Source: an uncultured Gammaproteobacteria bacterium (GTDB lineage: Bacteria; Patescibacteriota; Patescibacteriia; UBA1558; UBA10009). Taken from it: DNA of 42,610 nucleotides. Made by a program: the position numbers and the translations under genes. The notes below the pieces were generated by a model, which worked only from the letters and a program-made list of their open reading frames with translations, did not search any database and had not been told where the DNA came from. The stretch is taken from assembly GCA_964588165.1 (NCBI GenBank), contig CAZPMS010000005.1:69411-112020 (forward strand). The letters run 5' to 3'. Positions 7,449 to 35,854 of this stretch are shown here, in pieces. How positions within the stretch are numbered: position 1 is the stretch's first letter; each line of letters begins with the position of its first letter.

Positions 7449-7510
7449 GCTAATATTAGTTTAATTAGTAAGTTACTATTATTGACATAATATCTTAAAT
7501 ATGCTAATTT
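7449..7510 (+). promoter_or_regulatory. Promoter module: palindrome GCTAATATTAG, -35 TTGACA, extended -10 TGcTAATTT
   Basis: GCTAATATTAG at 7449-7459; TTGACA at 7482-7487; 17-nt spacer; TAATTT at 7505-7510 preceded by TGC. Homologous to the module at 11976-12035. Confidence 0.5.
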
Positions 7511-7566
7511 AATCTGTTTAGAACGTTGACAGTTTAGTGAGGAACAACCACAAAAGGAGAAGAGTC

Positions 7567-8382
7567 ATGAACACTAATAGTGCAAAAGACACACCAGTCA
7601 AGATGTTTGAGTGGGTTGTCATTTTAAGTGTTTTGGCGGGCGCTGTTTTTTTAACCGCTATTATACATAATTCGGGGTTTTGGGTGGCCGTGCTGCCAGC
7701 CACTTTCTTTTTTGGGGTAATTTTTAAGCTTGATACTCTAGCTAAAAAAGAAAAGAAAAACAACAACCTGCTCTTAGTAAGGAGGGCTAATTTAAGGACA
7801 TTGTGGGCCCCAACAATTCTTGTTTTATTGTGGGGGTTATTAAGCTTTCTTCGGTTTGATTTGAGCCCCCTAACTATCTACAACCACAATACTGGAGAGC
7901 TGGCAGAGGTTGGTAGGGTTGTTTGGGTTAGTCCATCTCAGTCGGTGGTTAAGTTTACTGAGCCGGACGACTCAACTGAAGAATATTATTTCAACTGCCG
8001 TGAAAACAGGGGCAACGAGTTTGTTTATCGAGAAGGCGAGGGGTATAAAATCAAAATCTTATTAAACTTTGATTATTATAACCGAGCCGAGCTTCTTAAT
8101 TACTTTTATCCTATAATCAGCGAGCGTGTGGAGGAAAGATGGTTTTGGTTTGAGTCTTTTAAGTTTACAGCGGACAGGTTGGCATGTGATTTACTAGCTG
8201 ACTATCATCGTCAAAACCTTGAGGCCCAACACTTGCTAGTTAATAAAAACCTTGGCCCGCAAAACCGCCAGCATTTAAAAATCCAACTTGAGGAAGGGTT
8301 TGAGGCGGTTTTAGTTGCCAATAAGATTGATGATATTGTTGATGTTGTTGTTGACAGTATCTATGTGGAAATTAGTTTTTAA
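7567..8382 (+). CDS. Membrane protein, function unknown (N-terminal TM helices plus ~170-aa soluble domain)
   Basis: The ORF-track start is 7537. ATG at 7567 is preferred because AAGGAG lies 7 nt upstream. TM segments WVVILSVLAGAVFLTAII, FWVAVLPATFFFGVIF, LWAPTILVLLWGLLSFL. GC-richer than the backbone. Confidence 0.6.
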   Translation: MNTNSAKDTPVKMFEWVVILSVLAGAVFLTAIIHNSGFWVAVLPATFFFGVIFKLDTLAKKEKKNNNLLLVRRANLRTLWAPTILVLLWGLLSFLRFDLSPLTIYNHNTGELAEVGRVVWVSPSQSVVKFTEPDDSTEEYYFNCRENRGNEFVYREGEGYKIKILLNFDYYNRAELLNYFYPIISERVEERWFWFESFKFTADRLACDLLADYHRQNLEAQHLLVNKNLGPQNRQHLKIQLEEGFEAVLVANKIDDIVDVVVDSIYVEISF

Positions 8383-8483
8383 CTGTATTTGTTTAGGTTG
8401 AGCTTGTGTTGTAGTTATGCAAGAGTGTTAGCGAGATTGTTAACTCAATTTTGCCAACACTATAAACTGTTAAGGAGGTTATT

Positions 8484-8801
8484 ATGCAGTGGTATATTGA
8501 TTTTATCCAGATGGTGGCCAATTGTCTGGGCACCTACCCATTTTTAGCGCCAACAGTACTTGGTTTGATTGGTTCGCCAATCATGGCCTGTTTCCCGGGA
8601 TTAAAGTGGTGGCAGCGACCAATAGCCTTTGTTTTGACGCCAATAGTGGGAACTGTTGTGTTTTATCTAGCCGAACTTGTAGTAGGCTTGGGTGTTGTAG
8701 TGTTTTTGGGTATAGGCATTTTTTCAGCAATACACACAGTATCTTGGCTTCTACCCAAAGCAATTTTTACCGGTGATTGGGGGTCACCTCAACCTGAGTA
8801 A
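8484..8801 (+). CDS. Small membrane protein (3 TM), function unknown
   Basis: 105-aa ORF with AAGGAGG 6 nt upstream of the ATG. Hydrophobic throughout. Followed by a terminator. Confidence 0.6.
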   Translation: MQWYIDFIQMVANCLGTYPFLAPTVLGLIGSPIMACFPGLKWWQRPIAFVLTPIVGTVVFYLAELVVGLGVVVFLGIGIFSAIHTVSWLLPKAIFTGDWGSPQPE

Positions 8802-8827
8802 CAAAAGCTAGATTCAACAAAACTACA

Positions 8828-8859
8828 AGCCGTTGTGTAATTCAACAACGGCTTTTTTA
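8828..8859 (+). terminator. Intrinsic terminator of the 7567-8801 cassette
   Basis: AGCCGTTG (8828-8835) pairs with CAACGGCT (8846-8853), followed by TTTTTT. Confidence 0.7.
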
Positions 8860-8888
8860 TTGACTTAATACTAAAAAATTGGTAGACT
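8860..8888 (+). promoter_or_regulatory. Putative rpmH operon promoter
   Basis: TTGACT at 8860-8865, 17-nt spacer, TAGACT at 8883-8888. Confidence 0.45.
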
Positions 8889-8990
8889 AAAGCTCAAGTT
8901 TTTTGTTATCATTAATTATATGTCGTATAACTTGTAACATATATCGTCAGTCTTAAGATATGTGTTACACGATACACAATACACGATATT

Positions 8991-9128
8991 ATGCCTAAAA
9001 GAACTTATCAACCTAAAACAAGGAAGAGAGCTAAAACCCATGGTTTTAGAAAAAGAAGCGCTAGCAAAACCGGCAAGCGTGTTTTAAAGAGCCGCAGAGA
9101 TAAAGGTAGAAAAAAATTAGCTGCTTAA
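8991..9128 (+). CDS. rpmH: 50S ribosomal protein L34
   Basis: Not in the ORF track because it is under 60 aa. Translation by eye gives [45 protein letters not shown] (45 aa), the canonical L34 sequence. Lies directly upstream of rnpA. Confidence 0.9.
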
Positions 9129-9131
9129 TAA

Positions 9132-9470
9132 ATGCTTCCCCAAATAAACAGACTGACCAAAGAGTCAGACTTTAAAATAGTAGCCAAAAAAGGGAGGCCT
9201 TTTTATTCATCCTGCTTAACTATTAAAACTTTTAAAAATAACTATGAGGCATCTCGGTTTGGCATTGTTATTTCAGCCAAAGCTAGCAAGAAAGCAGTTA
9301 CCAGAAACCAATTAAAAAGAAGGCTTTCTGAAATAATTAGAACCAATTTAGATAAACTTAATAAAGGTTTTGATGTGATGATTTTAGTAAAAAAGGAATT
9401 AACTGAAAAAAGTTTTAAAGAAATTGAGGCTGAACTACTTAATTTATTTAAAAAAGCAAAACTACTATAA
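9132..9470 (+). CDS. rnpA: Ribonuclease P protein component
   Basis: 112-aa basic ORF in the conserved rpmH-rnpA-yidD-yidC order. N-terminal LPQINRLTKESDF motif. Confidence 0.85.
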   Translation: MLPQINRLTKESDFKIVAKKGRPFYSSCLTIKTFKNNYEASRFGIVISAKASKKAVTRNQLKRRLSEIIRTNLDKLNKGFDVMILVKKELTEKSFKEIEAELLNLFKKAKLL

Positions 9471-9703
9471 TGAAAATTCTAGTTTTAAAAACCATTAGGT
9501 TATATCAAAAAACACTTTCTCCAGATTCTGGATGGTTTTCTTTTAAATACCCTAACGGTTATTGTCGGTTTCATCCTCACTGCTCAGAATATTCTCATCA
9601 AGCAATAAATAAACACGGCCTTATTAAAGGCTTTTATTTATCTTGTAAAAGAATTTTAAAGTGTAACCCTTTTAATAAAGGTGGCCACGACCCCGTTAAA
9701 TAA
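9470..9703 (+). CDS. yidD: Membrane protein insertion efficiency factor YidD
   Basis: 77 aa. Motifs CRFHPHCSEYSHQAI and RILKCNPFNKGGHDPV. Start overlaps the rnpA stop. Confidence 0.85.
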   Translation: MKILVLKTIRLYQKTLSPDSGWFSFKYPNGYCRFHPHCSEYSHQAINKHGLIKGFYLSCKRILKCNPFNKGGHDPVK

Positions 9704-9738
9704 TCAATCATTAATCTTTAACCATCAATTATTATTCT

Positions 9739-10479
9739 ATGTTTATAGAAATTTACAACACAATTTTGTACGAACCGTTATTTAATTTATTGGTTTTTTT
9801 CTACAATATTGTCCCAGGTAATGATATTGGCTTAGCTATTATCCTGTTAACTATTTTTATAAAGTTAATCCTATCCCCTTTCTTCATCCAATCCATAAAA
9901 GCCCAGAGAGCAATGCAGACTTTGCAGCCTAAATTGGATGAGCTAAAAGAAAAATTTAAAGATGAAAAAGATAAGTTAGGCCCGGCTATAATGGAACTTT
10001 ATAAAAAAGAAAAAGTTAGTCCTTTTTCTTCATGCTTGCCCCTTTTAATCCAACTCCCCTTTTTAATTGCAGTTTATCAAGTGTTTAGGACCGGCTTAGC
10101 TAACGGCAGTTTGGATAAGGTATATTCTTTTATTACCAACCCCGGAGCTATTGATCCCATTTCATTTGGTATTGTAGATTTGGGCCAGGCCAGTATATTT
10201 ATGGCTGTTTTGGCTGGCGGCGCCCAATTTTTACAGTCAAAAATCATGTTAGGCAAAACTAAAAAAATGCAAACCAATACCAAGGCTAAATCCCCTATGG
10301 CTTCTGCTATGGGTAAGCAAATGATGTATTTTATGCCAGTAATTACCGTTTTTATTGGAGCATCATTGCCAGCCGGCTTAACCTTTTATTGGTTTTTAGT
10401 AACTTTATTCGGCGCTTTGCAGCAGTTAATAATTTTTAAGAAAATGGATAAAGCTGAAGCTATACCCGAAAAAACCTAA
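9739..10479 (+). CDS. yidC: YidC/Oxa1-family membrane insertase (short form)
   Basis: 246 aa, multi-TM. Motifs LQPKLDELKEKFKDEKDKL and ELYKKEKVSPFSSCLPLLIQLPFLIAVY. Conserved synteny. Confidence 0.85.
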   Translation: MFIEIYNTILYEPLFNLLVFFYNIVPGNDIGLAIILLTIFIKLILSPFFIQSIKAQRAMQTLQPKLDELKEKFKDEKDKLGPAIMELYKKEKVSPFSSCLPLLIQLPFLIAVYQVFRTGLANGSLDKVYSFITNPGAIDPISFGIVDLGQASIFMAVLAGGAQFLQSKIMLGKTKKMQTNTKAKSPMASAMGKQMMYFMPVITVFIGASLPAGLTFYWFLVTLFGALQQLIIFKKMDKAEAIPEKT

Positions 10480-10490
10480 GTTTATGTTTT

Positions 10491-10760
10491 ATGATTTGTG
10501 GTTTTGATAAAATAAAAAATCTCCCAACCTATACCAAAAGCGGCGATTTTTTAGGCAAAATTGATGGGATAGAAATAAATTGCCAAACTCAGGTAGTAGC
10601 TCGTTATATAATAAAAAGTTCTAAAATAATAAATAGATTAACTTCTCATAAATTGATTGTAAGTGCTAGCCAAGTAATAAGTCTGGATAACAAGAAGATG
10701 GTTGTAGAAGACAGCACCATAGGTAATACCAGACTAGCCCGTCAAGGCGTAGCTTCATAA
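10491..10760 (+). CDS. Small PRC-barrel-like protein (tentative)
   Basis: 89-aa ORF. Pattern LPTYTKSGDFLGKIDGIEIN ... KLIVSASQVISLDNKKMVV resembles a PRC-barrel fold. Based on pattern only. Confidence 0.4.
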   Translation: MICGFDKIKNLPTYTKSGDFLGKIDGIEINCQTQVVARYIIKSSKIINRLTSHKLIVSASQVISLDNKKMVVEDSTIGNTRLARQGVAS

Positions 10761-10770
10761 AAATAATATA

Positions 10771-10806
10771 AAAAACAGCCTACTAAATAAGCGGGCTGTT
10801 TTAGTT
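10771..10806. terminator. Bidirectional terminator between convergent genes
   Basis: ACAGCC (10775-10780) pairs with GGCTGT (10794-10799). A-run before and T-run after. Confidence 0.6.
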
Positions 10807-10819
10807 TATTTAAAATTGT

Positions 10820-11830
10820 TTATTGGTTAGAGAAAAATTCCCAAATAACAGGAGTTTCCCATTGGTACCACCTATGCTCGCCTTGGTTTAAAGTATAAAG
10901 AACCGTATCAGCCTGGCACTGGGTAAATTCTTCACGAACGGCATCATGTTCTATAATATTTTCACTTACTATACCACCTTGGCAGTGATTACTTTCTGAC
11001 CATTTAGCAAAAGCTTCTGGGATAGAGGCTACGCCCGGTTTACCATTATATAAAACTGTTCCATCAAGTAAGCCATTAAACATGATTATAGGTACTGGTT
11101 GGGGAGTTACATCTGTATTTTCACCCATGGTTCCGCCAACTGTAGCAATGCCCGCGAAAGTCCCAGGCAAAGTATAAGCTAAATATTGAGTGAATATGGC
11201 ACCATTTGATGAACCAGTAGCGAAAATTTTAGTTTCATCGATGGCCAGATTTGAAATAAGCTCATCAATTAAAGCTACAATAAAACCTTTATCATCAACT
11301 GGAGCATTATTTGTAAACCACCAGCCGGTTTCATTGGGAGCATTGGTATTGCCGCCAAGTAAGGATTGAGGATAGACTACAATAAAACCCTCTTGGTTAG
11401 ATAGCAGGGAAAACTTAGTGGTACCCTCAAAAGCATAAGAAGTTCCGGTAGTTCCATGGAAAGCCATAACTAAAGGCATTGGTGTTTGGCCGTTATAATT
11501 TGGCGGTAAATGAACACGGTAGGTTCTTATTCCTCCATCATACTCTAAACTATAATTATATGAGCCGATTTGGTAATTATTTTGAGGATCATTAACAGGC
11601 TCTTCAATAGGTTCTTCTGGCGGAGTGTCAGGATCACTAGGTGTTATCTGGGGAACAGTTTTTGGCGCAGTTTTTGATGTTGGCGGGGTAGTGCCAGCTG
11701 GGTACTGCTCATAATTATTATTTTGCCTAAAGTTGGCAATTCGGTTTCGCCTTTTTTGCTGTAGAGCCACTGCCAAAACCACAATGATTAAGACTAAAAT
11801 TATTAGGATAAATATTTGTTTCTTTCTCAT
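10820..11830 (-). CDS. Secreted or membrane-anchored alpha/beta-hydrolase esterase, PHB-depolymerase/LpqC-like family
   Basis: The ORF-track start is 11911. The internal ATG at 11830 (MRKKQIFILIILVLIIVVLAVAL) gives a signal anchor right at the N-terminus. Pro/Thr-rich linker. YRVHLPPNYNGQTPMPLVMAFHGTTGT and nucleophile-elbow-like GSSNG. Confidence 0.65.
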   Translation of the reverse strand: MRKKQIFILIILVLIIVVLAVALQQKRRNRIANFRQNNNYEQYPAGTTPPTSKTAPKTVPQITPSDPDTPPEEPIEEPVNDPQNNYQIGSYNYSLEYDGGIRTYRVHLPPNYNGQTPMPLVMAFHGTTGTSYAFEGTTKFSLLSNQEGFIVVYPQSLLGGNTNAPNETGWWFTNNAPVDDKGFIVALIDELISNLAIDETKIFATGSSNGAIFTQYLAYTLPGTFAGIATVGGTMGENTDVTPQPVPIIMFNGLLDGTVLYNGKPGVASIPEAFAKWSESNHCQGGIVSENIIEHDAVREEFTQCQADTVLYTLNQGEHRWYQWETPVIWEFFSNQ

Positions 11831-11975: not shown

Positions 11976-12035
11976 GCTAATATTAGGAAAATTTATTAAT
12001 TTATAGTTGACATAATTATTTAGATATGCTATAAT
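11976..12035 (+). promoter_or_regulatory. Promoter module: palindrome GCTAATATTAG, -35 TTGACA, extended -10 TGcTATAAT
   Basis: GCTAATATTAG at 11976-11986; TTGACA at 12007-12012; 17-nt spacer; TATAAT at 12030-12035. TTTTGGCTAATATTAG is identical over 16 nt to 7444-7459. Confidence 0.55.
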
Positions 12036-12089: not shown

Positions 12090-12383
12090 ATGAAATGCAA
12101 AGTTTTCTTTGCTTTTGGTGAACCAGGAGTCGCAAATTCACTTACCCGTTCAGGGGAAAGAACATCTTTCTATGTTCCCGCAGATCGTGAAGAGTATGAA
12201 AGGAGTAGGGCGAGTGAAGTTCCAACTGCAGCAGATGAAATACTTGAAGTTGAGGTTAACACCTGGCTTCGAGAGAACCCCGAAGTTGTAATAATAAGTC
12301 AATCATTGACGGTTATGCCACATACTGATGGCGTCTACAGAACACTGTATCTGTCAGTTTTGTACGAACAACCCGAGGAATAG
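12090..12383 (+). CDS. Small acidic cytoplasmic protein, function unknown
   Basis: The ORF-track start is 12075. ATG at 12090 is preferred because GGAGG lies 8 nt upstream. GC-richer sequence. The C-terminal part (EVEVNTWLRENPEVVIISQSL...LYLSVLY) has an alpha/beta small-domain look. Confidence 0.55.
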   Translation: MKCKVFFAFGEPGVANSLTRSGERTSFYVPADREEYERSRASEVPTAADEILEVEVNTWLRENPEVVIISQSLTVMPHTDGVYRTLYLSVLYEQPEE

Positions 12384-12440: not shown

Positions 12441-12441
12441 A

Positions 12442-12503: not shown

Positions 12504-12704
12504 TCAAGTAGATTTTGTAGGAGAAGGTAAAGGACGATTGCCCCACATTTCCACACAAATGAACAATAAGCCGAGAGGCCCCAGCACATAGAGGATGGGC
12601 ACAGTAATACTGTGGTGCCATCTTAATTTCCCCCATTTTCTTTTGATATAGATTAGGGATATTATGGCTGCCAGTAGGCCACTTACTAACCAGAGCGCTT
12701 CCAT
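12504..12704 (-). CDS. Small membrane protein (2 TM), function unknown
   Basis: 66-aa ORF. AGGAGGG lies 5 nt upstream of the ATG (minus-strand reading AAAAGGAGGGTGCAATG). Chosen over the overlapping frames 12386-12589 and 12439-12636, which lack an SD. Confidence 0.55.
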   Translation of the reverse strand: MEALWLVSGLLAAIISLIYIKRKWGKLRWHHSITVPILYVLGPLGLLFICVEMWGNRPLPSPTKST

Positions 12705-13597: not shown

Positions 13598-13603
13598 ATA
13601 ACT

Positions 13604-16339: not shown

Positions 16340-16642
16340 TCACACTCGCTTGATTTGTGCACATGCTCGACGTATGGTGGTTCTTGCAGAACATTTTTTT
16401 ACCAAGCAATTAATCCAGCACAGTGACCGTTCCTGCGTTGGCTCCTGAGCGCATTTTATTGCAAGGGCACCTGTTCTATTTATAATACTACGGGCGGTAT
16501 CCCAGTAACTACTATTTGCTTCATCAAATGTTTCAGCCTTGGGCATTGGACAGTCCGCAGGATGATCATCGATGGGATAGAATGTCACAACCCGCAAAAC
16601 GAAGCCCCAGTATCTTTTCCCTCTCGTTTTCCTTGATTCCAT
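16340..16642 (-). CDS. Hypothetical 100-aa protein, Cys-rich C-terminus, function unknown
   Basis: AAGGAGG lies 8 nt upstream of the ATG (minus-strand reading CAAGGAGGCATATCGCATG). GC-richer sequence. A terminator follows directly. Confidence 0.5.
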   Translation of the reverse strand: MESRKTRGKRYWGFVLRVVTFYPIDDHPADCPMPKAETFDEANSSYWDTARSIINRTGALAIKCAQEPTQERSLCWINCLVKKCSARTTIRRACAQIKRV

Positions 16643-16722: not shown

Positions 16723-17097
16723 TTATCGCTTTGCCAAAAGTGAGTCCTTGGGGATTATTAATTTAAATAATATTTCCGGCTCACCTTTCCTAACTAATGA
16801 CAGCATGTTGTTATAAGAAATAAAATTCAGTTGCTCTTCTACCTCCTTTCGCTCAGTTTCATTTAAGTTCATCTTTTCGAGTATCTCCAAAGCAACAATG
16901 AACTTGCTCAAAGCTTGAATGAATTTAATTTCTGATGGTATACCATGAGACAGATCGTTATCAGAATCAAGAGAGCTCTTATGGAAAAGAGTGGGGGATG
17001 TAATTTTCAAATAACTATATATTTCGGCAACGCTCTCTTCAATCACTTCCAAAACTGCTTTGTGTGCAAGTATCTGGCCATCCAATTTTAATGCCAT
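16723..17097 (-). CDS. Hypothetical 124-aa helical protein, function unknown
   Basis: AAGGAG lies 7 nt upstream of the ATG (TAAAGGAGATGCGTCATG). First gene of the minus-strand pair. Confidence 0.55.
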   Translation of the reverse strand: MALKLDGQILAHKAVLEVIEESVAEIYSYLKITSPTLFHKSSLDSDNDLSHGIPSEIKFIQALSKFIVALEILEKMNLNETERKEVEEQLNFISYNNMLSLVRKGEPEILFKLIIPKDSLLAKR

Positions 17098-19991: not shown

Positions 19992-21032
19992 TTAAAGACG
20001 CAAGGCGTGCATAGCAACGCTGAGGCCGGAGCCAAAGGCTACTACCACAACTAGTTCACCGGGCTTAATAACACCATTTTGCCAGGCTTCGGAAATTATC
20101 AGGCCGGTACTGGCGCTGCTTAGGTTGCCGCAGGTTTCCACGTTGCGATGGAAAGTTCCGGCAAAACCAGAGTGTTTTTTTTGAAAATTTTTCAAAAGCA
20201 GGTCCAGAGTCTTACCGCTAGGCTGATGTGGCACTAGATGTTTTATATTTGCCGGATCAATTCCGGTCTCTTTTATAAAATCGGTTAGACGTTGAACTAC
20301 TGTCCGACCGACAAATTTATGGACGCTATTGCCGTCCTGATCAAAACCATCGGGCGTATTGGCAATCTTATGAAGATTATTTCCTTGCGGTAGAGAAACA
20401 ACATCAAAGGCGATAAAGCTATCGGTAGTGTCTGTAGCCAGCAAGAAAGCCGAGGCTCCATCGCCGAAAAGGTTGCTGTGCTTCCAGTTGTCATACGGTG
20501 CTAAGGTTGTGTTTTTCTCTGCACAGACCACTAGCACTTTTTTGGCTGCGCCGCTTTTGATCAGGTTCCAGCCGGCAAAAAGAGCCATAACACCGGTCGG
20601 GCAGGCCTCCTGAACATCAAAGCAGCCAATGTTGCTGGGCTTGTCCAATAGAGCATCAAGTATATGGTCGGCCAGACTGGGATAGCCTTGATTGGTATTG
20701 CTGCCGCCAATAATAAAATCCAATTGATTGGCTTTTACATCGGCGTTATCTAAACAGTGGCGAGCAGCAATGATTGCCATTTGTTCCGCCGAACCGTCAA
20801 ATAAAATACGACTTTTGACTCCGGTATGTTGTTGCCAGTTATCTGCTACCCGGGCAATTTCATTATCGTCCCAGGGAGGACCATGGTCGAATAATTTGGT
20901 TTTGCCACCACCTGACATGAGGCGCTGGATAAACCGAATATTGGAGATAATGGAAAATCCCGAGTCTTGCTTGGGGTCGGTATGGCCCAAGCCAATGACT
21001 TTGCAACCCGATGGGCTAGGGTGGATAAGCAT
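19992..21032 (-). CDS. 3-oxoacyl-ACP synthase III (FabH/KAS III)-like condensing enzyme
   Basis: 346 aa. Cys-His-Asn triad contexts VQEACPTGVMAL, LVPHQPSGK, ETCGNLSSAS. C-terminus VVVVAFGSGLS. AGGAG lies 9 nt upstream. TTGACA-N17-TAATTT promoter. About 45-50% GC by eye. Confidence 0.8.
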   Translation of the reverse strand: MLIHPSPSGCKVIGLGHTDPKQDSGFSIISNIRFIQRLMSGGGKTKLFDHGPPWDDNEIARVADNWQQHTGVKSRILFDGSAEQMAIIAARHCLDNADVKANQLDFIIGGSNTNQGYPSLADHILDALLDKPSNIGCFDVQEACPTGVMALFAGWNLIKSGAAKKVLVVCAEKNTTLAPYDNWKHSNLFGDGASAFLLATDTTDSFIAFDVVSLPQGNNLHKIANTPDGFDQDGNSVHKFVGRTVVQRLTDFIKETGIDPANIKHLVPHQPSGKTLDLLLKNFQKKHSGFAGTFHRNVETCGNLSSASTGLIISEAWQNGVIKPGELVVVVAFGSGLSVAMHALRL

Positions 21033-21284: not shown

Positions 21285-22052
21285 TTATGAAATGGTTTTC
21301 TCAGCCACGATAACCCATTTCAGTTTTGAGCCAAAGGGTAGGCCCGAGACCATTCTTGCATCAATACTCGCATCAGTATCCCTAAGCGATTGGAAGGGCG
21401 TGAGGCCACTGCTCACGGCATTTGGGGTGAGGCTTAGTAATTCTTCATCTGGTTTGGTGAATAAAGCTGTTACCTTTTTGACATGACGTAAAGAAAGGTT
21501 GCAAATTTCAAGCAATTCGTTCAGGCGCTGAGCCATACTTTCTTGTTGCCTCCAGAACTCTTGATGAACGGGCTTGCCATCTGCAATTGCAGGAATGATG
21601 CCAGAGAAGTAATACCGCTCAACGTTGCCAAAAACAACCTTGATAACTGGTAAAAACGGAAAATCCCAGCCTGCTGGAATTGTGCCCCCTGGGATAATGA
21701 TTATGTTTGTTTCAGGTGCCAGATCAACAGTTAAGCTGATTAAAGCACCGTTAGGCATTTCCACTCGAGGTAGGGCATAAGCAGCTCGAGCTGGAAACCT
21801 CTTTTCGCCGCCAAACTTTTCTACATAGAGCTTGTTCAATGTCCCATAGGCATTGAGGTCATCAGCCAGATTGACAGTAACCCTAATAACTCTGTTGAGA
21901 GATAAACCGTTTCGCTTCAACGTATCAGCCAGTGATAAAAATGTTGACTTGATGTGAGTGGCTGGATTGTCGCTAAGACCTGAAGATACAATTAGCGGGA
22001 TTTGCGCAACACCCCCAACTGTCACGACCTGCGGAACAAAGCTTTCAATCAT
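21285..22052 (-). CDS. Tandem RidA/YjgF/L-PSP-like two-domain protein
   Basis: 255 aa. First half LADTLKRNGLSLNRVIRVTVNLADDLNAYGTLNKLYVEKFGGEKRFPARAAYALPRVEMPNGALISLTV fits the RidA pattern. The second half repeats the pattern more weakly. AGGAGG lies 7 nt upstream. Confidence 0.55.
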   Translation of the reverse strand: MIESFVPQVVTVGGVAQIPLIVSSGLSDNPATHIKSTFLSLADTLKRNGLSLNRVIRVTVNLADDLNAYGTLNKLYVEKFGGEKRFPARAAYALPRVEMPNGALISLTVDLAPETNIIIIPGGTIPAGWDFPFLPVIKVVFGNVERYYFSGIIPAIADGKPVHQEFWRQQESMAQRLNELLEICNLSLRHVKKVTALFTKPDEELLSLTPNAVSSGLTPFQSLRDTDASIDARMVSGLPFGSKLKWVIVAEKTIS

Positions 22053-29063: not shown

Positions 29064-29119
29064 AATAGTTTTTGAAAGAAACCGATCTTTTACATTTTTT
29101 GTACAACTAGGAGGAACTG

Positions 29120-29818
29120 ATGAACGACAGTATTATTGTTGCTTTAGATGGTATGCCCAAAAATCGTGCCTTGAAAATGGCCATGCTTCTTTCGGGCAAA
29201 CCAGGTTTGTGGGGATTCAAACTCAATGATTTATTGGGTGAGTATGGTTATTCGGTTATTGCTGAAATCGGTCAGTATGGTCGAGTGTTTGCCGATCCGA
29301 AGCAGCATGACGTGCCTCCAACTGGCATGAATTTCGGTCGCAAACTTTTAGAGTACTCACCAAGCCTGGTGACTGTGCATGCTTCGGCTGGGCCTGAATT
29401 CATGATGAAGTTTGGTGAGGGTCTGGGCGGTATGTCTAAGGTGCTGGCAGTGACTGTTCTTACCAGTATGAGCGAGGAACAGTGTCAACTTACCTATGGC
29501 GGTTCGGTCAAGGCGACCGTTCTCAAGTTTTCGAGATGGGCAAAGTTGGCTGGAGCACCACAGGTTGTGTGCTCAGCTCGTGACTTTTCGGTCTTCGATG
29601 ATAATTTGGAAATCAAAGATCTGAAAAAAGTGACGCCAGCCATTCGACCGTTGTGGTATCAGGAATTGAAACCCGACTTTGATTATCAGCGAAGGAAAAC
29701 CACGGCTAAGGATGCGGTTGAGGGTGGATCGGATTTGCAAGTGATTGGAACTCCGATCATTACGGCAGAAGATCCAGTTGAGGCACTTCGTTTAACTGTG
29801 GAGGAAACAAACGGCTAG
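29120..29818 (+). CDS. pyrF: Orotidine-5'-phosphate decarboxylase family protein
   Basis: 232 aa. IIVALD, DxKxxD as ADPKQHDVPPT, VTVHASAG, TPAIRP, VIGTPIITAEDP. AGGAGG lies 6 nt upstream. GC-richer than its neighbours. Confidence 0.65.
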   Translation: MNDSIIVALDGMPKNRALKMAMLLSGKPGLWGFKLNDLLGEYGYSVIAEIGQYGRVFADPKQHDVPPTGMNFGRKLLEYSPSLVTVHASAGPEFMMKFGEGLGGMSKVLAVTVLTSMSEEQCQLTYGGSVKATVLKFSRWAKLAGAPQVVCSARDFSVFDDNLEIKDLKKVTPAIRPLWYQELKPDFDYQRRKTTAKDAVEGGSDLQVIGTPIITAEDPVEALRLTVEETNG

Positions 29819-29841
29819 TTTTGGATCTTATACATAGTATT

Positions 29842-29872
29842 AAAAGCTTTGCTTTTTCAGCAAAGCTTTTTT
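29842..29872. terminator. Hairpin terminator after the pyrF-like gene
   Basis: AAAAGCTTTGC (29842-29852) pairs with GCAAAGCTTTT (29860-29870). T-run follows. Confidence 0.75.
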
Positions 29873-29873
29873 A

Positions 29874-29907
29874 AATAAAAAAACCGCCAAAGATGTATTT
29901 GACGGTT
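29874..29907 (-). terminator. Terminator of the 30814-29915 membrane protein gene
   Basis: AACCG (29882-29886) pairs with CGGTT (29903-29907). The A-run on the plus strand is a T-run on the minus strand. Confidence 0.5.
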
Positions 29908-29914
29908 AGCAAAA

Positions 29915-30814
29915 TTATTCTTGCCAAGGATTTTGTCCAAGAGCATCTTCAAGCAGCACAACCTCTCCCCGGCTTATTAGGTCTTTTAAAACACCAGGAC
30001 CAAGCACAAAGACTCGGGGTTTAGCTGAGGGATGGAGAGTTTCACAAGCATATGGATAACGTTGAATAACTACATCCTTAACCCAGTTCCACCAGTGGGC
30101 AGACAGATTTTTCCGAGCGATCCTTTTGGTCCAAGGCCTGATTATGCCAAGGGTAATAAAATTGGTTAAAATAAAAGTAAGCAACCAAATAATAAACAAA
30201 AGGTAATTCTGCTGGAAAAGGCTGGTTAGGCTGGCGGCTAAAAAGGTAACTATCATCCCCCGCCAGTAACTTTTAGGGATTCCTAAACGGAAATTTTGGA
30301 ACCAAGGCACGAAGTTTTTATTATGCCTGGCGGGTCCGTAGTAAGGGTGGATTAAAAACCAAATATAGTCTTCCACTACCACCAGTTCAATATAGCAGCA
30401 AGCTGCCAAGGTAAATAAAGCCCAAAAGGCCGGCCAATTCCACTCTTCCCCCATAAATAAAGTGTAGGCCGGAATAAAAAATATTACTCCGGCATAGATG
30501 GCCATCCAAATAAGCATGGAATTCAGGTGATATTCGGTAGCCCACTTATCCTGTCCGGTAATCCATCGGAAAAATTTGCTGTACCAGTGGCTAATAGAAA
30601 ACCGGTTGGTAAAAGTTAAGGCGCTCCAGCCAAATGGCCCTTCAATAGCTACTTCTTGCTTAGCAATTAGAATAGCCGGAATAATAATTGAAGCTGTTGC
30701 CAGTAGGGCATAAAGCAGATGGGCAACTTCTATTCCAAACATAACTACTCCGAAGTTTAGTTGTTTTTTATGTGCTGAATATAATAAATTATCAAAGAGT
30801 TTGGTTTTTGTCAA
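29915..30814 (-). CDS. Polytopic membrane protein (6-7 TM), function unknown
   Basis: 299-aa ORF rich in Trp/Phe/Tyr with multiple hydrophobic helices. A possible alternative start is Met25 (MFGIEVAHLLY). Confidence 0.55.
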   Translation of the reverse strand: MTKTKLFDNLLYSAHKKQLNFGVVMFGIEVAHLLYALLATASIIIPAILIAKQEVAIEGPFGWSALTFTNRFSISHWYSKFFRWITGQDKWATEYHLNSMLIWMAIYAGVIFFIPAYTLFMGEEWNWPAFWALFTLAACCYIELVVVEDYIWFLIHPYYGPARHNKNFVPWFQNFRLGIPKSYWRGMIVTFLAASLTSLFQQNYLLFIIWLLTFILTNFITLGIIRPWTKRIARKNLSAHWWNWVKDVVIQRYPYACETLHPSAKPRVFVLGPGVLKDLISRGEVVLLEDALGQNPWQE

Positions 30815-30816
30815 TA

Positions 30817-30855
30817 TAAAAAAAGAAACCCTGTCTACAAAAGTAAACAGGGTTT
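30817..30855 (-). terminator. Terminator of the 31480-30899 gene
   Basis: AAACCCTGT (30826-30834) pairs with ACAGGGTTT (30847-30855). The A-run at 30817-30824 is a T-run on the minus strand. Confidence 0.65.
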
Positions 30856-30898
30856 GCTGTATTCGCAGGGGGGTATGATTACCCCTGCCCAGGGCGGA

Positions 30899-31480
30899 TC
30901 AGACGAAGCTCAATTGTACGGATGGAAGGTTGAGGTGAATACCATCATAATCGAATTGATCGAAGGTCGAATAATTCAATCGCAGGATGGTTTCAACCTC
31001 TTGGAATTTTCCCGGATCCGATACGGTCCAGTAGTCGTTGAAGTATCCGCCGATGCTGCCAGCTGCCATCATATTGTCAGTTGGACAGTTCATCGTGAAT
31101 GCATTCTGATCGCAGCCTCCAAAACCAAATAGTTCGTTATTTTCCCAGTCATGCCAATAATCCGGCATGATTACATTTTCGCCGAAATCGCCGAGGGTAC
31201 TTTCATCATCAATATAAAAGGCGTTTACGGCTGTGTTGTTGACCGTTTCTGCAATCGGCAGAGGCGGGGCCAGCGACCCGGGCGAGTAGACGGCGTATTC
31301 GATGGTGAACGGATGCTCGTACATCAACGAGATACGGTCCAGCGCGACCGGAACATCAAAATCGGTGGAAGACACTTCAGAGCTTATGGCGAAGGAATCT
31401 TCAACCATTGGCGGCCCAGTATCAACGAACCAGGCGAGCAAGAAGAGCATCACAAACATCAGAATGACGTGTCGTTTCAT
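30899..31480 (-). CDS. Secreted orphan protein (signal peptide followed by a GPP motif)
   Basis: 193 aa. N-terminus MKRHVILMFVMLFLLAWFVDTGPP. GGAGG lies 9 nt upstream. About 50% GC (31/60 at 31021-31080). TTGACA-N17-TATTAT promoter with a ~110-nt leader. Confidence 0.6.
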   Translation of the reverse strand: MKRHVILMFVMLFLLAWFVDTGPPMVEDSFAISSEVSSTDFDVPVALDRISLMYEHPFTIEYAVYSPGSLAPPLPIAETVNNTAVNAFYIDDESTLGDFGENVIMPDYWHDWENNELFGFGGCDQNAFTMNCPTDNMMAAGSIGGYFNDYWTVSDPGKFQEVETILRLNYSTFDQFDYDGIHLNLPSVQLSFV

Positions 31481-31655
31481 ACTCGGTTTCCTCCGTGTGT
31501 TGGGTTGCTACTTCCCAGTGTTTTACCGGGATTATATTTATAATGTTTTGTTTAAAGGTTCTAATTGCGAATAAAGCATAATAACACAATATACTATCTG
31601 TGTCAATACTAAATTATAGCTATATTAATTTAACATAAGCTATTTTTTTTGGCAA

Positions 31656-31690
31656 ATAAAAAGAGCCCATCATTTATGAGTGACGGGCTC
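31656..31690 (-). terminator. Terminator of the 32304-31738 gene
   Basis: GAGCCC (31663-31668) pairs with GGGCTC (31685-31690). The A-run on the plus strand is a T-run on the minus strand. Confidence 0.65.
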
Positions 31691-31737
31691 CAGAGCTGTT
31701 CTTGCTACTTGCTACCGGATCGAAAGGGATCCATTCC

Positions 31738-32304
31738 CTACGTCGTTGATCCGGCAGATTGAAGCGAGCTTCTATTGAACGGGTTGTTGATGCTTCGAAT
31801 CAGCATGATAGTTTCAACCCCGGGCACTTCTTCGCCATAAACGGTATGATGGTTGTTGCGCGCGTTCTGCGAATTGCTCAGGCCTACCACGATCACAATA
31901 TCTTTGGCATCGAGCGACCTCATCAAATCACTTACGTGGTTAAACGTGCCAAGAATGGCGTAATCGCTAACGTTTGGAACCGGCCGTTCGTTTGAGTCGT
32001 TCAGATACTGCACATCGTTGAGCACAACGAGTTTGGCATCGAGCGACCCCATTAGTAATGTTTCGTCGTTGCCAGCAATCATCATGGTCTGGTTCAGACT
32101 CGGCACGATGTTTGCAACTTGACTGCCGTCAACCACCGCCTGGTTGAACGGGGTCGTAATCACGAAGTTGAACGGGGTCGTAATCACGAAATCGAATGTT
32201 GCCATGTTATCATCGGTCGCCCCGATGTAGGGTGGGCCGATGGCATGGCTCAAACCAATGACCATGAATAACATGGCCATCAAAACAAGGAGCAGATGTT
32301 TCAT
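31738..32304 (-). CDS. Secreted orphan protein (signal peptide followed by a GPP motif) with an internal 8-aa duplication
   Basis: 188 aa. N-terminus MKHLLLVLMAMLFMVIGLSHAIGPP. GGAGG lies 10 nt upstream. FDFVITTPFNFVITTPFN is encoded by a 24-bp tandem repeat. Confidence 0.6.
   Translation of the reverse strand: MKHLLLVLMAMLFMVIGLSHAIGPPYIGATDDNMATFDFVITTPFNFVITTPFNQAVVDGSQVANIVPSLNQTMMIAGNDETLLMGSLDAKLVVLNDVQYLNDSNERPVPNVSDYAILGTFNHVSDLMRSLDAKDIVIVVGLSNSQNARNNHHTVYGEEVPGVETIMLIRSINNPFNRSSLQSAGSTT
32144..32191. repeat. 24-bp tandem duplication inside the secreted-protein gene
   Basis: TTGAACGGGGTCGTAATCACGAAG (32144-32167) and TTGAACGGGGTCGTAATCACGAAA (32168-32191). In frame. Confidence 0.9.
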
Positions 32305-32444
32305 CCTATGCTACCTCCGTTTTTTTGCCTAGTTAATTAACCAGGCTATTTCCCCTAAAAGGGGTTGGGATTGAATGAACAAAATGTAAATTTTTTAAAA
32401 TTACTATTTAATTAAAACACATTTTTTTATTTTTTGCAAAGGTT

Positions 32445-32487
32445 AGCCGATAATCGGCTTGACAAACTGTTATGGGTAAATTACAAT
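32445..32487 (+). promoter_or_regulatory. tig promoter with abutting 15-bp palindrome AGCCGATAATCGGCT
   Basis: Palindrome at 32445-32459 overlaps the first T of TTGACA (32459-32464). 17-nt spacer. TACAAT at 32482-32487. Confidence 0.5.
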
Positions 32488-32520
32488 ATACCCTACATTT
32501 ATAAATAAATTTTTAAAATC

Positions 32521-33801
32521 ATGAAGATAAGTAAGTCACAACCAAAAAAATCAGAAGTGCTATTGGAGATTGAAGTATCTACCGATGAAGCCAGGCCGTT
32601 TTTAGAAAAAGCTGCAGCTAGGGTTTCTAAAAATACTAAAATAGAAGGCTTTAGGCCGGGCAAGGCGCCTTACCATATTGTTAAACAAAAGGTTGGTGAA
32701 ATGAATATTTACCAGGAAGCTCTGGATAATATTGTTAGCCATTTTTATATTGAAGCTGTAAAACAGGAAGATCTTGATGCCGTAGGCCAGCCTAAAATTG
32801 AAATGGAAAAAGTGGCCCCAGGCAATCCCATTGCTTTTAAGGCTACAGTTAGCCTAATGCCGGAAATAAAACTGGGTGATTATAAAAATATTAAAGTAGA
32901 AAAAAAGGAAATTAAAGTTGAAGATAATGAAATAGACAAATCTATTAATGATTTAAAAAAGATGCAGGTTAAGGAAGTTTTAGTGGCAAGAGAAGCACAA
33001 AAAGGTGATAGGGTGGAAGTTGATTTTGAAGTAAGCCTGGACAAAGTGGTTATAGAAGGCGGCCAAGGCAAAAAATATCCGATTGTTTTAGGCGAAGGCC
33101 AGATGATTCCCGGTTTTGAAGAACAAATAGAAGGCTTAAAGAAAAATGAAGAAAGAGAATTCAAATTAAAATTTCCAACAGAGTATCAAAATAAAATGGT
33201 GGCCGGCAAAGAATGTGATTTTAAAGTTAAACTGCTTGCCGTTTATAATCAAGAACTGCCTAAGGCAACCGATGAGTGGGCTAAAGGTTTAGGCGCAGAA
33301 AGCCTGGAAGATTTAAAGTCTAAAATCAGAAAAAACCTTGAAGACGAAAGAAAATTTCATGAAGAGCAACGAGTAGAAATTGAACTTCTAAAAAAGATTG
33401 TAGAACAGGCAGAATTTTCTGAAATCCCGGAAAATTTAATCCATTCAGAATCCCATAGAATGCTCCATGAATTTGAAGACAGCATTACCAGGCAGGGTTT
33501 AACTTTTGATGATTATTTAAAAAGCATTAAAAAAGATAAAAAAGAATTGGAAAAAGAATTCAAGCCCAAGGCAGAAGACAGGGTAAAAACTTCAATCATA
33601 ATCAAAGAAATTGGCGATGCTGAAAAAATAGAAGTTACAAAAGAAGAACTGGCAGAAGAAACTAAGAAAATTTTAACTCAAGCCCAAGGCAATCCAGAGG
33701 CAGAGGCTAATGTAAAAACAGACGGCTATCAAGGTTATTTAAAAACCATTGTCAGGAACAGGAAAGTTATTGAAATGTTAAAAAAGGAAAGTTTGAAATA
33801 A
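32521..33801 (+). CDS. tig: Trigger factor
   Basis: 426 aa. N-terminal ribosome-binding motif GFRPGKAPYHIV. Central FKBP-like region GMIPGFEEQIEGLKKNEEREF. Confidence 0.9.
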   Translation: MKISKSQPKKSEVLLEIEVSTDEARPFLEKAAARVSKNTKIEGFRPGKAPYHIVKQKVGEMNIYQEALDNIVSHFYIEAVKQEDLDAVGQPKIEMEKVAPGNPIAFKATVSLMPEIKLGDYKNIKVEKKEIKVEDNEIDKSINDLKKMQVKEVLVAREAQKGDRVEVDFEVSLDKVVIEGGQGKKYPIVLGEGQMIPGFEEQIEGLKKNEEREFKLKFPTEYQNKMVAGKECDFKVKLLAVYNQELPKATDEWAKGLGAESLEDLKSKIRKNLEDERKFHEEQRVEIELLKKIVEQAEFSEIPENLIHSESHRMLHEFEDSITRQGLTFDDYLKSIKKDKKELEKEFKPKAEDRVKTSIIIKEIGDAEKIEVTKEELAEETKKILTQAQGNPEAEANVKTDGYQGYLKTIVRNRKVIEMLKKESLK

Positions 33802-33825
33802 ATAATTTAAAGTATAATAATAAAT

Positions 33826-33847
33826 GGGGCAGAAATGCCCCTTTTTT
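33826..33847 (+). terminator. Intrinsic terminator after tig
   Basis: GGGGCA (33826-33831) pairs with TGCCCC (33836-33841), followed by TTTTTT. Confidence 0.8.
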
Positions 33848-33860
33848 GCTATAATTAATG

Positions 33861-33950
33861 AACCACACGACCGTCATTTAAGCAACGTAACGGAGTGAAG
33901 TGATAGAATCTGGTCGTGTGAGACTCTATCGCTTCGCTCCAGAGTGACAA
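33861..33950. repeat. About 90-bp GC-rich imperfect-palindrome element (left of nfo)
   Basis: 16-bp stem GGAGTGAAGTGATAGA (33892-33907) with TCTATCGCTTCGCTCC (33925-33940), containing two G-U pairs. Competing stem CACACGACC (33864-33872) with GGTCGTGTG (33912-33920). Confidence 0.65.
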
Positions 33951-33955
33951 TAACT

Positions 33956-34801
33956 ATGAAATTTGGTTCACATGTATCAATTGCCGGTGGAATTTATAAA
34001 GCACCTAGCAATGCTAAAGCTGTTGGAAATGAAGTTTTCCAAATTTTTTCACGTTCTCCAAGGGGCGGCAAGCCACAAGAATTAACCAAAGAAATTGTTA
34101 AAAGTTTTCAATCGGAGATGAAGGTAAACGGCCAGTCGGAAGCTTATATTCATACGCCATATTACATCAACCTGGCTTCAACCAATAACCGGATAAGGCA
34201 CGGGTCAATTGAAGTTATTAGAGAAGAATTGGAACGAGCAAGCAAGCTAGGCGTTAAATATGTGATGACTCATTTAGGCAGCGCCAATAACTTACCTCGC
34301 AACCAAGCAGTCAGCCAAGTTATAAAAGGCATTAAGAAAATTTTAACCGGTTACAAGGGCGCTGCTACGTTTTTAATAGAAAATTCAGCCGGTTCCGGAA
34401 ATATTGTTGGTGATACTTTTGAAGAAATTAATACTATCATTAATGGGGTCCCTCGTTCCGCTCGGGACAGACTTTCAGTCTGCCTTGACACCTGCCATGC
34501 TTTTGCTACAGGTTATGATCTGCGGGATAAAAAGTCAGTCAACAAAACTCTAAAGGAGTTTGATAAAATAATAGGCTTGTCAAAACTCAAATTAATTCAC
34601 CTTAATGATTCAAAAACAGATTTCGGCAGTAAAGTTGATAGGCATGAACATATTGGCAAAGGTAAAATCGGTTTAGTGGGCTTTAAGGAATTTATTAATC
34701 ATCCCAAGCTTAAAAAAGTTAGCATGATTTTAGAAACCCCGATTGATGAGAAGGGAGATCATAGTACGGATTTAAAAGTGATTAAAAAGTTAAGAAAATA
34801 A
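33956..34801 (+). CDS. nfo: Deoxyribonuclease IV (endonuclease IV, AP endonuclease)
   Basis: The ORF-track start 33944 is GTG inside the repeat. ATG at 33956 gives MKFGSHVSIAGG. YIHTPYYINLAS, MTHLGS, CLDTCHAFATGYD and HLNDSK metal-ligand motifs. Confidence 0.9.
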   Translation: MKFGSHVSIAGGIYKAPSNAKAVGNEVFQIFSRSPRGGKPQELTKEIVKSFQSEMKVNGQSEAYIHTPYYINLASTNNRIRHGSIEVIREELERASKLGVKYVMTHLGSANNLPRNQAVSQVIKGIKKILTGYKGAATFLIENSAGSGNIVGDTFEEINTIINGVPRSARDRLSVCLDTCHAFATGYDLRDKKSVNKTLKEFDKIIGLSKLKLIHLNDSKTDFGSKVDRHEHIGKGKIGLVGFKEFINHPKLKKVSMILETPIDEKGDHSTDLKVIKKLRK

Positions 34802-34810
34802 AATTTTAAA

Positions 34811-34897
34811 ACGTCATTCTGAGGCATAGCCGAAGAATCCCACTACTTTAGCACGTGGTAAATTTAATGGGATCCTTCACTCCGTTTAGGATGACGT
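34811..34897. repeat. About 87-bp GC-rich imperfect-palindrome element (right of nfo), same family as 33861-33950
   Basis: ACGTCAT (34811-34817) pairs with ATGACGT (34891-34897). ATCCCA (34837-34842) pairs with TGGGAT (34868-34873). CTTCACTCCGTT (34875-34886) is the exact reverse complement of 33889-33900. Confidence 0.65.
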
Positions 34898-34924
34898 AGG
34901 AAAAATTTTATTTAGAATTTAACT

Positions 34925-35569
34925 ATGACAGTCGGTATTTACATTATCATAATTTTAATCCTCGGCTACTTTAGTGTTTACCTTAGAGAAAGGTATTTAA
35001 AGGTAAAATGGATGAAGCCGTTAACTTGGCTGGGAATTTTTATCCATGAATCATCGCATGCTCTGTTTTGTATTTTAACGGGCGGGCGGGTAACCGGTTT
35101 TAGGGTAACTTCAACTGTAGGTTATGTAACCCATTACCGGCCTAAAGTACCAATTTTAGGGCCTATGCTTACAGCTATCGGCCCGATGATAGTAGGTTTA
35201 GTTGTTGTAGGCATTTTAAATTATTTTTGGTTGGAAACATCCTTAGCCATTAACACGCCAAACATTTGGGAAAATCTAATTGCCATTGCATCTGGTTTGA
35301 ATTTATTAACTTGGCAGGCTTGGGTTTTATTGGTAATCTTTTTAAACATCGGAGTAATGCTGGGGCCTTCGGTAGCTGATTTAAAAACTATCTGGCCACT
35401 TATTGCTGCATCTTTTTTTATTAATAGTGAAGGTTTGGCTCAAGTTCTGGCTTTAGTGATAGCTATGATAATTGTAAATATTATTTTATTTTTAGTTATA
35501 TTGTTGTTAAAAAAGTTATTAACTAAAAAAAATCGACCTGTTGGTCGATTAGATTTTCCCAGAGATTAA
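34925..35569 (+). CDS. Membrane protein with HExxH motif, peptidase M50B-like (tentative)
   Basis: 214 aa, 5-6 TM. IFIHESSHALFCILTGGRVTGF resembles the HExxH..TGG segment of M50B-like membrane metalloproteases. Confidence 0.55.
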   Translation: MTVGIYIIIILILGYFSVYLRERYLKVKWMKPLTWLGIFIHESSHALFCILTGGRVTGFRVTSTVGYVTHYRPKVPILGPMLTAIGPMIVGLVVVGILNYFWLETSLAINTPNIWENLIAIASGLNLLTWQAWVLLVIFLNIGVMLGPSVADLKTIWPLIAASFFINSEGLAQVLALVIAMIIVNIILFLVILLLKKLLTKKNRPVGRLDFPRD

Positions 35570-35854
35570 ATCTAAGATCATGTTTTGTACGTTGCGGTTG
35601 CTTTTATACCACACCCCTTCAGTTTTAATAAATATTCCGTAAATTGTAAATTCTTTTACTTGGCAACCAAGATCAAACAGAGTGATAGTGAGAAAATTGA
35701 CTTTACCTCTAATTTGGACAGAATCCAGTTTTAGCAAGTCTTCTGCCTCTAATTCGTTCAACACAAATTTAATCTTATCATTGCATATTACAGTTAGCTC
35801 AAAAGATTTACCCCTATTGGTTCCAAATGTAATCACTGTATCAGCTTGTGTCAT
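35549..35854 (-). CDS. Hypothetical 101-aa protein, function unknown
   Basis: AGGAGG lies 6 nt upstream of the ATG (CTAGGAGGAAAAGATG). Convergent with 34925-35569 and overlaps its end by 21 nt. Confidence 0.45.
   Translation of the reverse strand: MTQADTVITFGTNRGKSFELTVICNDKIKFVLNELEAEDLLKLDSVQIRGKVNFLTITLFDLGCQVKEFTIYGIFIKTEGVWYKSNRNVQNMILDLISGKI

Follow-up and report, generated by a model that had tools for sequence, protein, structure and literature searches.

The 42,610-nucleotide stretch of contig CAZPMS010000005.1 analysed here (assembly GCA_964588165.1, forward-strand positions 69,411 to 112,020; hereafter the window) raises the question why a bacterial chromosome whose genes mostly start without a Shine-Dalgarno (SD) sequence carries, dispersed among them, a minority of genes with a canonical one. 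The minimum of the cumulative GC skew at about 7.0-7.5 kb, beside dnaA, the gene content (including dnaA, dnaN, rpmH-rnpA-yidD-yidC, trx/trxB, gdh, rnhB, nusA, hppA, tig and four tRNAs) and the best HppA homologues, which belong to metagenome-assembled genomes (MAGs) of Paceibacteria/Patescibacteria at 70-72% identity, together identify the window as an origin-proximal part of the chromosome of a candidate phyla radiation (CPR) bacterium of the Paceibacteria type. An initial annotation had interpreted the SD-led genes as foreign cassettes repeatedly acquired from an SD-using donor or, alternatively, as a separate, differently translated class of accessory genes. From our point of view, the probable, though by no means secured, answer is that this chromosome uses two modes of translation initiation, namely an SD-less one for the core and a selected, gene-specific SD on an accessory class.

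SD strength was scored as the energy of the duplex between the region upstream of each start and 5'-ACCUCCUUA-3' for 52 genes of the window. At all twelve starts named in the initial annotation, the ATG is indeed preceded at 5-9 nt by GGAGG, AGGAG or AAGGAGG, and these starts reach -7.4 to -12.8 kcal/mol, as against -5.9 kcal/mol or weaker (median -0.2) for the about 40 other genes, so that the description of the latter as an SD-less backbone holds as well and the SD energies in the window are cleanly bimodal. Since energies of -7 or stronger occur at just 4% of the window's ATGs overall, finding 12 such starts among 52 genes is hardly a matter of chance (binomial p=9e-7). The inventory of twelve open reading frames (ORFs) in about nine cassettes has to be amended, as a thirteenth SD-led gene starting at 30742 on the minus strand had been overlooked (a weaker SD, cGGAGtagttATG, -6.1 kcal/mol) and the 13 genes form 11 promoter-to-terminator units at six intergenic sites. 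The class lies mostly on the lagging strand (8/12 vs 6/40 for the backbone, p=0.001). In the contig flanks beyond the window, about 13 more SD-less genes and one more SD-led orphan were found, the latter encoding 93 aa and lying about 5 kb upstream of the window amid nine SD-less genes.

The two classes also differ in composition. GC content is 0.44 in the SD class vs 0.335 in the backbone (Mann-Whitney p=9e-6) and GC at third codon positions (GC3) is 0.44 vs 0.29 (p=2e-6), with C3 and G3 both higher, and lysine accounts for about 5% of residues vs 10%. The earlier claim of GC-richer DNA is hence correct for the class as a whole, but not for the genes 17097- (GC 0.36) and 35854- (GC 0.33), which are backbone-like. 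The initiation regions (-30..+30) of the SD class fold more stably (-8.45 vs -4.81 kcal/mol, p=0.003) and the GC content of the 5' untranslated regions is 0.39 vs 0.23.

The view of the SD-led genes as self-contained expression units was largely borne out. Near-consensus promoters of the form TTGACA-N16-17-TAnnnT precede 7567, 12090, 17097, 21032, 22052, 30742, 31480 and 35854, and hairpins followed by T-runs lie after 8801, 12383, 12504, 16340, 19992, 21285, 29818, 29915, 30899, 31738 and 35549; two units contain two genes (7567 with 8484 and 17097 with 16642), and a PyrF-like gene has no obvious promoter of its own. The same promoter consensus, however, is found on backbone genes (e.g. at 14084, 18083, 25587 and 32459), which means that the promoter type does not divide the two classes. 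A leaderless backbone can be ruled out, as the sigma-70-like promoters precede the ATGs by 25-45 nt and the mRNAs consequently have leaders, which are A/U-rich and SD-less. The only element that cassettes were found to share is a near-palindromic motif, (TTTTG)GCTAATATTAG. Its copies at 7449-7460, 11976-11987, 14645-14656 and 17199-17210 precede the TTGACA boxes of three SD-led units and of a tRNA-Ala promoter by 8-31 nt, and two of them sit in divergent regions beside the two TrmB-like regulators. This motif may represent an operator or an UP-like element, and its occurrence upstream of the tRNA-Ala promoter argues for a host-type promoter feature and not for a mark of the cassettes.

The most informative member of the SD class is the gene for a KAS III (FabH)-like condensing enzyme (19992..21032, minus strand), which has the SD CAGGAGA, a TTGACA at 21102-21097 and a terminator at about 19981-19946. 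The initial identification of this protein is supported by matches to Pfam ACP_syn_III and ACP_syn_III_C above the gathering threshold and by the Cys-His-Asn triad (Cys144, His269 and Asn303), which is invariant in 54 members of the family. The NCBIfam cut-offs for FabH are not reached (158 bits vs 249 and 133 vs 292), and the family is centred on CPR bacteria, with about 55 homologues at 38-55% identity before values fall to about 30% for canonical FabH. Judged by these scores, the enzyme belongs to a distinct CPR-centred clade and is not a fatty-acid FabH at the level of orthology. In one related locus (L106), an SD-led gene of the NAD_binding_4 type (fatty-acyl reductase-like; 9267-10319) lies directly downstream of the KAS III-like homologue, which hints that in some genomes the family may take part in a small pathway of the lipid or polyketide type.

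Across 16 distinct genomes, the KAS III-like gene is SD-led in 15, namely that of the window plus 14 of the 15 further contexts. In these 14, the leaders cannot be aligned apart from a strong SD and a TTGACA promoter belonging to the gene itself. Its neighbours in most contexts are SD-less, with median energies close to 0; three short loci (L095, L096 and L105) and one locus of 71% GC (L108) depart from this. Conservation in relatives, which the initial annotation had itself named as an argument against acquisition, is found for this gene: in five diverged genomes it adjoins the Trx-TrxB-Gdh-RnhB cluster at a distance of 0.2-4 kb, and its pairwise identities parallel those of Gdh, with L093 and L094 being closest and the window being the outgroup. 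In the same five genomes, the KAS III-like starts are all SD-led (5/5) and the Trx, TrxB, Gdh and RnhB starts are all SD-less (18/18). Within the population sampled here, the KAS III-like gene, the RidA-like gene and the 124-aa gene described below are fixed across all assemblies. From the synteny and the Gdh-congruent identities we conclude that the KAS III-like gene is ancestral and has been inherited vertically with a conserved SD; the SD of a donor, if it were a mere relic, would not persist in this way, which makes the relic explanation a poor one for this gene.

A second family points in the same direction. The PyrF-like homologues in three other Patescibacteria loci (L112, L113 and L114) are SD-led, and the clearly housekeeping genes beside them (those for a protease, ClpB and a sigma factor, rpsB/tsf, and those for SMC, GyrA and FtsH) are SD-less. 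On the CPR-like contig L113, a purine cluster (PurM-like, PurH, PurB, PurE and PurC) together with PyrF occupies 2271-11423; most of its genes are SD-led and GC-richer, and it adjoins the SD-less rpsB-tsf, so that the split recurs here on a larger scale. An SD of -8 kcal/mol or stronger was scored for 48 of the 479 genes (10%) in a set of 27 related loci, or for about 7% if the genes by which loci had been selected are left aside, and the GC3 of the SD-led genes is on average 0.05 above that of the local backbone. No Pfam match was obtained for 18 of 30 scanned SD-led genes of these loci, and most of the others are accessory in nature (DUF3006, DUF218, HAD hydrolase, DNA methylase, WD40, acyl-reductase-like and PurM-like, together with PurA and CarA); SSB and a PilB-type ATPase are also among them.

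Under the explanation that we favour, core genes would be transcribed from ordinary sigma-70-type promoters into mRNAs with short, A/U-rich and unstructured leaders and would do without an SD, whereas the 13 accessory genes, mostly envelope or secreted orphans plus the lone KAS III-like, RidA-like and PyrF-like enzymes, would initiate via the canonical SD. These genes could have entered the lineage at very different times, ranging from ancient (the KAS III-like gene) to recent at the level of strains (an island between hppA and tig, see below), and the orphans among them presumably derive from horizontal transfer. As the initiation regions of the SD class are more structured and GC-richer, we infer that they depend on pairing with the anti-SD and hence keep their SD, i.e., that the requirement for an SD would be a consequence of mRNA structure. 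The conservation of a canonical GGAGG at canonical spacing further implies that the ribosome probably retains a usable CCUCC tail.

Several points weigh against this explanation. The raised GC3 of the KAS III-like gene in four of the five vertically related genomes is not accounted for by an ancient acquisition, the difference in initiation structure is modest with overlapping distributions, and the figure of 10% SD-led genes is biased as the related loci were chosen via KAS, PyrF and hppA. Moreover, neither the window, the contig flanks and an extra 10 kb upstream nor any related locus examined yielded a 16S rRNA gene, and the share of 16S genes with a CCTCCT motif was just 48% in Parcubacteria (Tsurumaki et al., 2022; PMC9297842), so that the case for a functional anti-SD is built on the conservation of the SD. 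The latter study concerns the same lineage, and the low anti-SD detection that it reports would explain the SD-less backbone; it deals, however, with rRNA only and does not report a conserved SD-led minority, the existence of which implies that the SD is still recognised in these genomes at least.

Among the alternatives, the one closest to the initial proposal is that the whole class represents recently imported, un-ameliorated DNA from SD-using, GC-richer donors, with the SDs being relics and the anti-SD being lost or hidden. The raised GC and GC3, the low lysine content, the lagging-strand bias and the orphan status would all be expected from such an origin, and the fact that the anti-SD motif is detected in only part of the Parcubacteria leaves room for the relic reading. 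Import is supported for the strain-variable island in the hppA-tig slot (29064..32319), which comprises four SD-type units between the hppA stop at its left edge and a right junction at 32319/32320. In the relatives L012, L053 and L008, tig follows hppA directly, compared with 3.3 kb between the two genes in the window. Locus L120 matches the window at 100% identity across 32320-39801, and its point of divergence coincides exactly with the 5' edge of the SD that belongs to the 188-aa gene. In place of this gene, L120 has (at its positions 1-156) an AT-rich, SD-less one beginning MGKNILKISISQLNPTV..., placed behind the same leader from which the 188-aa gene is read in the window; by eye, the replacement looks NadE/CN-hydrolase-like. 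A third variant of the slot is represented by L127 (1-35), which diverges at 32398, and many assemblies end at 29.07, 30.1 and 32.3-32.5 kb. In L015, the slot contains two other SD-led minus-strand genes, and no homology was detected between these and the two secreted proteins that the window encodes in the same slot. Since relatives lack the island and strains differ there, the slot is a hotspot with recent turnover and the island is, on the comparison of these loci, recent.

For this island, the foreign-cassette proposal therefore stands. It fails for the syntenic, Gdh-congruent KAS III-like gene, whose SD is conserved despite vertical inheritance and whose copies with backbone-like GC3 (L096, L100, L104 and L106) even have the strongest SDs (AAGGAGG). 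In addition, 17097- and 35854- combine backbone GC with perfect SDs, and the spacing is canonical at every SD of the class. We thus regard pure import as an unlikely explanation for the class as a whole, and the other option raised by the initial annotation, a separate and differently translated accessory class, as the better fit, given how widely the SD of the KAS III-like gene is conserved. The import proposal as such is supported in part, and the SD split, which relatives keep as well, is probably a durable trait of a class of genes and more than the trace of recent import. The same distinction applies with regard to flexible-genome islets, which the SD-led units resemble in their atypical composition, their orphans, their lagging-strand bias, their insertion between syntenic core genes and the variation of the hppA-tig slot by strain and species, but from which they differ in that at least one member, the KAS III-like gene, is ancestral and in that their mark is a conserved translation signal and not merely un-ameliorated DNA.

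It is also conceivable, albeit rather doubtful in our judgement, that the SD-led genes form a translational regulon in which the anti-SD is available only under certain conditions or in a sub-population of ribosomes, such that the accessory genes would be switched as a group. The model for this is the SD recognition controlled by bS21 in Flavobacteriia: in Bacteroidia, initiation is blind to the SD, the anti-SD is sequestered by bS21/bS18/bS6, and a rare SD-led rpsU underlies the autoregulation of bS21 in Flavobacterium johnsoniae (PMC9976891; PMC13000453). The likeness to the present case lies in leaders that are mostly A/U-rich and without an SD, next to a minority with a strong, canonical and conserved SD that is functional in Bacteroidia. 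Besides this precedent, the sharp separation of the classes, the conservation of the SD on specific families and the many envelope or secreted members, which are plausibly condition-specific, would agree with a regulon. The class is, however, functionally heterogeneous, and the SD-led set of Bacteroidia consists of essentially one regulatory gene with a known mechanism, whereas here it amounts to 10-25% of the genes, which are accessory or orphan and often GC-richer. A more far-reaching version, in which translation in Paceibacteria would be two-tiered, with a core that is SD-independent and a conserved accessory set (KAS III-like, PyrF-like and envelope orphans) translated solely via SD-anti-SD pairing under regulated or sub-population-restricted access to the anti-SD, appears to us equally speculative and has little probability at present.

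A known type of mobile element, be it integron cassettes, a prophage remnant, a transposon or a miniature inverted-repeat transposable element, is very improbable. The units are small, discrete and intergenic, one site is a strain-variable hotspot, and the succession of small, mostly single-gene modules at 29.1-32.3 kb resembles an integron array. However, 56 kb of the contig contain no integrase, and no transposase appears among the Pfam matches of the window and the sequence on either side of it; the earlier statement that integrase, transposase and attC are absent is confirmed as far as testable. Unlike integron cassettes, for which an IntI, attC sites or a common Pc would be sought and were not found here, each unit generally has its own promoter, SD and terminator. 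The borders share no family of inverted or direct repeats and no attC-like family, ten proteins scanned gave no PHROG match, and three queries, including the 275-aa and 193-aa orphans, had no relatives in IMG/VR. Finally, an assembly chimera or contamination of a CPR contig with GC-richer pieces, as the composition jumps at the cassette borders might suggest, is ruled out for all practical purposes by junctions that recur with 100% identity across a large number of independent assemblies (JGI, ENA, Logan and NCBI) and by the same SD pattern in unrelated MAGs. The window sequence was recovered from all four of these sources, for instance in the 65.6-kb contig Ga0118721_1000270 of the JGI metagenome 3300009375, with contigs of up to 112 kb.

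With regard to the individual genes, the claim that the SD-led products are mostly orphans is well founded, as ten of the 13 proteins have no Pfam, NCBIfam or PHROG match and only the three enzyme-like ones do not fall into this group. Six or seven of the ten have the look of membrane or secreted proteins, no paralogy was detected among the SD-led proteins, and the orphans gave no tblastn match in 1.9 Mb of related loci.

The first unit, on the plus strand, starts with a gene for a 271-aa ORFan with an N-terminal membrane anchor (7567..8382; SD AAGGAG 7 nt before the ATG; TTGACA at 7483, preceded by the GCTAATATTAG copy at 7449-7460), for which an exhaustive HMMER search found no homologue among 1.84 billion representative proteins and whose junction with TrmB/dnaA is present in independent assemblies. 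It is followed by a gene for a predicted membrane protein of 105 aa (8484..8801; terminator 8827-8854) with the strongest SD of the window (TAAGGAGGT, -12.8 kcal/mol), which forms a singleton cluster found on 10 contigs. The likely oriC region (7000-9000, from the GC-skew minimum) overlaps this unit, whose neighbours are TrmB/dnaA on one side and rpmH on the other; in L015, dnaA is about 0.6 kb from rpmH-rnpA-yidD, a space too small for TrmB or the unit. At the second site, a 97-aa acidic orphan (12090..12383, plus strand; SD GGAGG; terminator at about 12404-12441) with a perfect promoter (TTGACA-17-TGnTATAAT, 12007-12035) is convergent with a 66-aa orphan with two transmembrane (TM) segments (12504..12704, minus strand; SD AAAGGAGGG; terminator hairpin 12484-12457).

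The third site harbours, on the minus strand, a gene for a 124-aa acidic helical orphan (16723..17097; GC 0.36; SD AAAGGAG; TTGACA-17-TATTAT at 17167-17139), which is divergent from the TrmB-like gene at 17234 and recurs without any difference (100% identity) in 8 or more independent assemblies. A basic, Cys-rich orphan of 100 aa (16340..16642; SD AAGGAGG) is the second gene of the same unit and is followed by a strong terminator at 16326-16296. Upstream of the KAS III-like gene and on the same strand lies the gene for a RidA/YjgF-like protein of 255 aa (21285..22052; SD TAGGAGGA; promoter 22126-22098; terminator at about 21269-21240). This protein had been described as a tandem of two RidA-like domains: the N-terminal half is a clear Ribonuc_L-PSP match (47 bits vs a cut-off of 27), but the C-terminal half gave only a weak second RidA match (E=0.011, 16 bits), and a word-indexed search returned no other homologue.

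The PyrF (OMP-decarboxylase)-like gene (29120..29818, plus strand; SD TAGGAGGA) starts 56 nt after hppA and has its own terminator at about 29842-29875. The protein matches Pfam OMPdecase (84 bits vs a cut-off of 27) and its 'DPKQHD' aligns with the catalytic DxKxxD motif of 3tfx, with NCBIfam scores under the cut-offs (124.9 vs 193 and 90.3 vs 92.3). It is followed by three minus-strand units, i.e., the overlooked thirteenth gene, which encodes a 275-aa multi-TM orphan (29915..30742; TTGACA 30813-30808; terminator 29907-29882), a 193-aa secreted or anchored orphan (30899..31480; GC3 0.58; SD CGGAGGA; TTGACA-17-TGnTATTAT at 31606-31578; terminator 30855-30826), and a 188-aa orphan, likewise secreted or anchored, that contains an internal repeat (31738..32304; GC3 0.63; SD CGGAGGT; terminator 31691-31662). 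The 193-aa protein has an N-terminal hydrophobic helix followed by ..GPP.., and its AlphaFold2 model (predicted local distance difference test score, pLDDT, of 35.5) is confident for this helix only. The last SD-led gene of the window encodes a 101-aa orphan (35549..35854, minus strand; GC 0.33) and has a perfect SD (TAGGAGGA), a promoter of the form TTGACA-16-TAAAAT (35913-35886) and a terminator at 35550-35531.

Population heterogeneity is not confined to the SD-led units, as strain-level breakpoints are also found inside the backbone, at window positions 24337 (L131), 7155 (L005), and 37100 and 39792-40772 (both L117). In L117, there is a single ORF of 301 aa where the source contig has separate genes of 175 and 106 aa. 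The 3' half of tRNA-Ala is present as a perfect 41-nt direct repeat (14736-14776 and 15110-15150) on either side of a 98-aa GIY-YIG gene (14805-15101), which looks like a small mobile insertion into tRNA-Ala with restoration of the tRNA 3' end. The start of the long trxB ORF at 15116 falls within this repeat, and public gene calls give a shorter TrxB of 304 aa. A second GIY-YIG gene (41110-41388) is located directly upstream of tRNA-Gly and has no flanking repeat of this kind. The 23S rRNA gene begins about 3.3 kb beyond the end of the window (L115, 10546-13613) and continues off the contig, with tRNAs and a protein of the 23S_rRNA_IVP family ahead of it; there is no 16S gene beside it past the window end, which indicates that the rRNA genes are unlinked. 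A C-rich motif resembling the anti-SD tail of the 16S rRNA, CCTAACCTCCTA, occurs in two copies only, at 78-97 of the window and at 5274-5293 of L143, 10-22 nt upstream of the starts of PBP1 (103) and YebC, respectively; on the opposite strand, at about 87-66 of the window, it reads TAGGAGGTTAGG-ATG ahead of a 17-codon ORF.

To our knowledge, a split of SD use between core and accessory genes has not been described for CPR bacteria, and a search of the literature found no account of one. That a single genome can hold differing start signals and genes of atypical composition is recognised by GeneMarkS-2, which employs mixed models of ribosome-binding sites and classes of 'atypical genes' (bioRxiv 10.1101/193490), although its classes correspond to genomes that combine leaderless with SD-led genes or to genomes of the Bacteroidetes type.

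Overall, CPR/Patescibacteria make up a large part of bacterial diversity and have unusual ribosomes, and a subgroup of them has been reported to be without the anti-SD motif. A conserved SD split of the kind proposed here would mean that SD recognition still works in some CPR lineages. The SD would then serve as a simple sequence marker by which flexible, non-core genes can be recognised in these genomes, and gene finders as well as expression designs for CPR bacteria would need two start models. It further makes the question of how SD-poor bacteria handle incoming SD-bearing genes experimentally concrete. If the two-tier system considered above were true, the SD would even act as a switch by which an episymbiont controls the translation of its flexible genes as a group.

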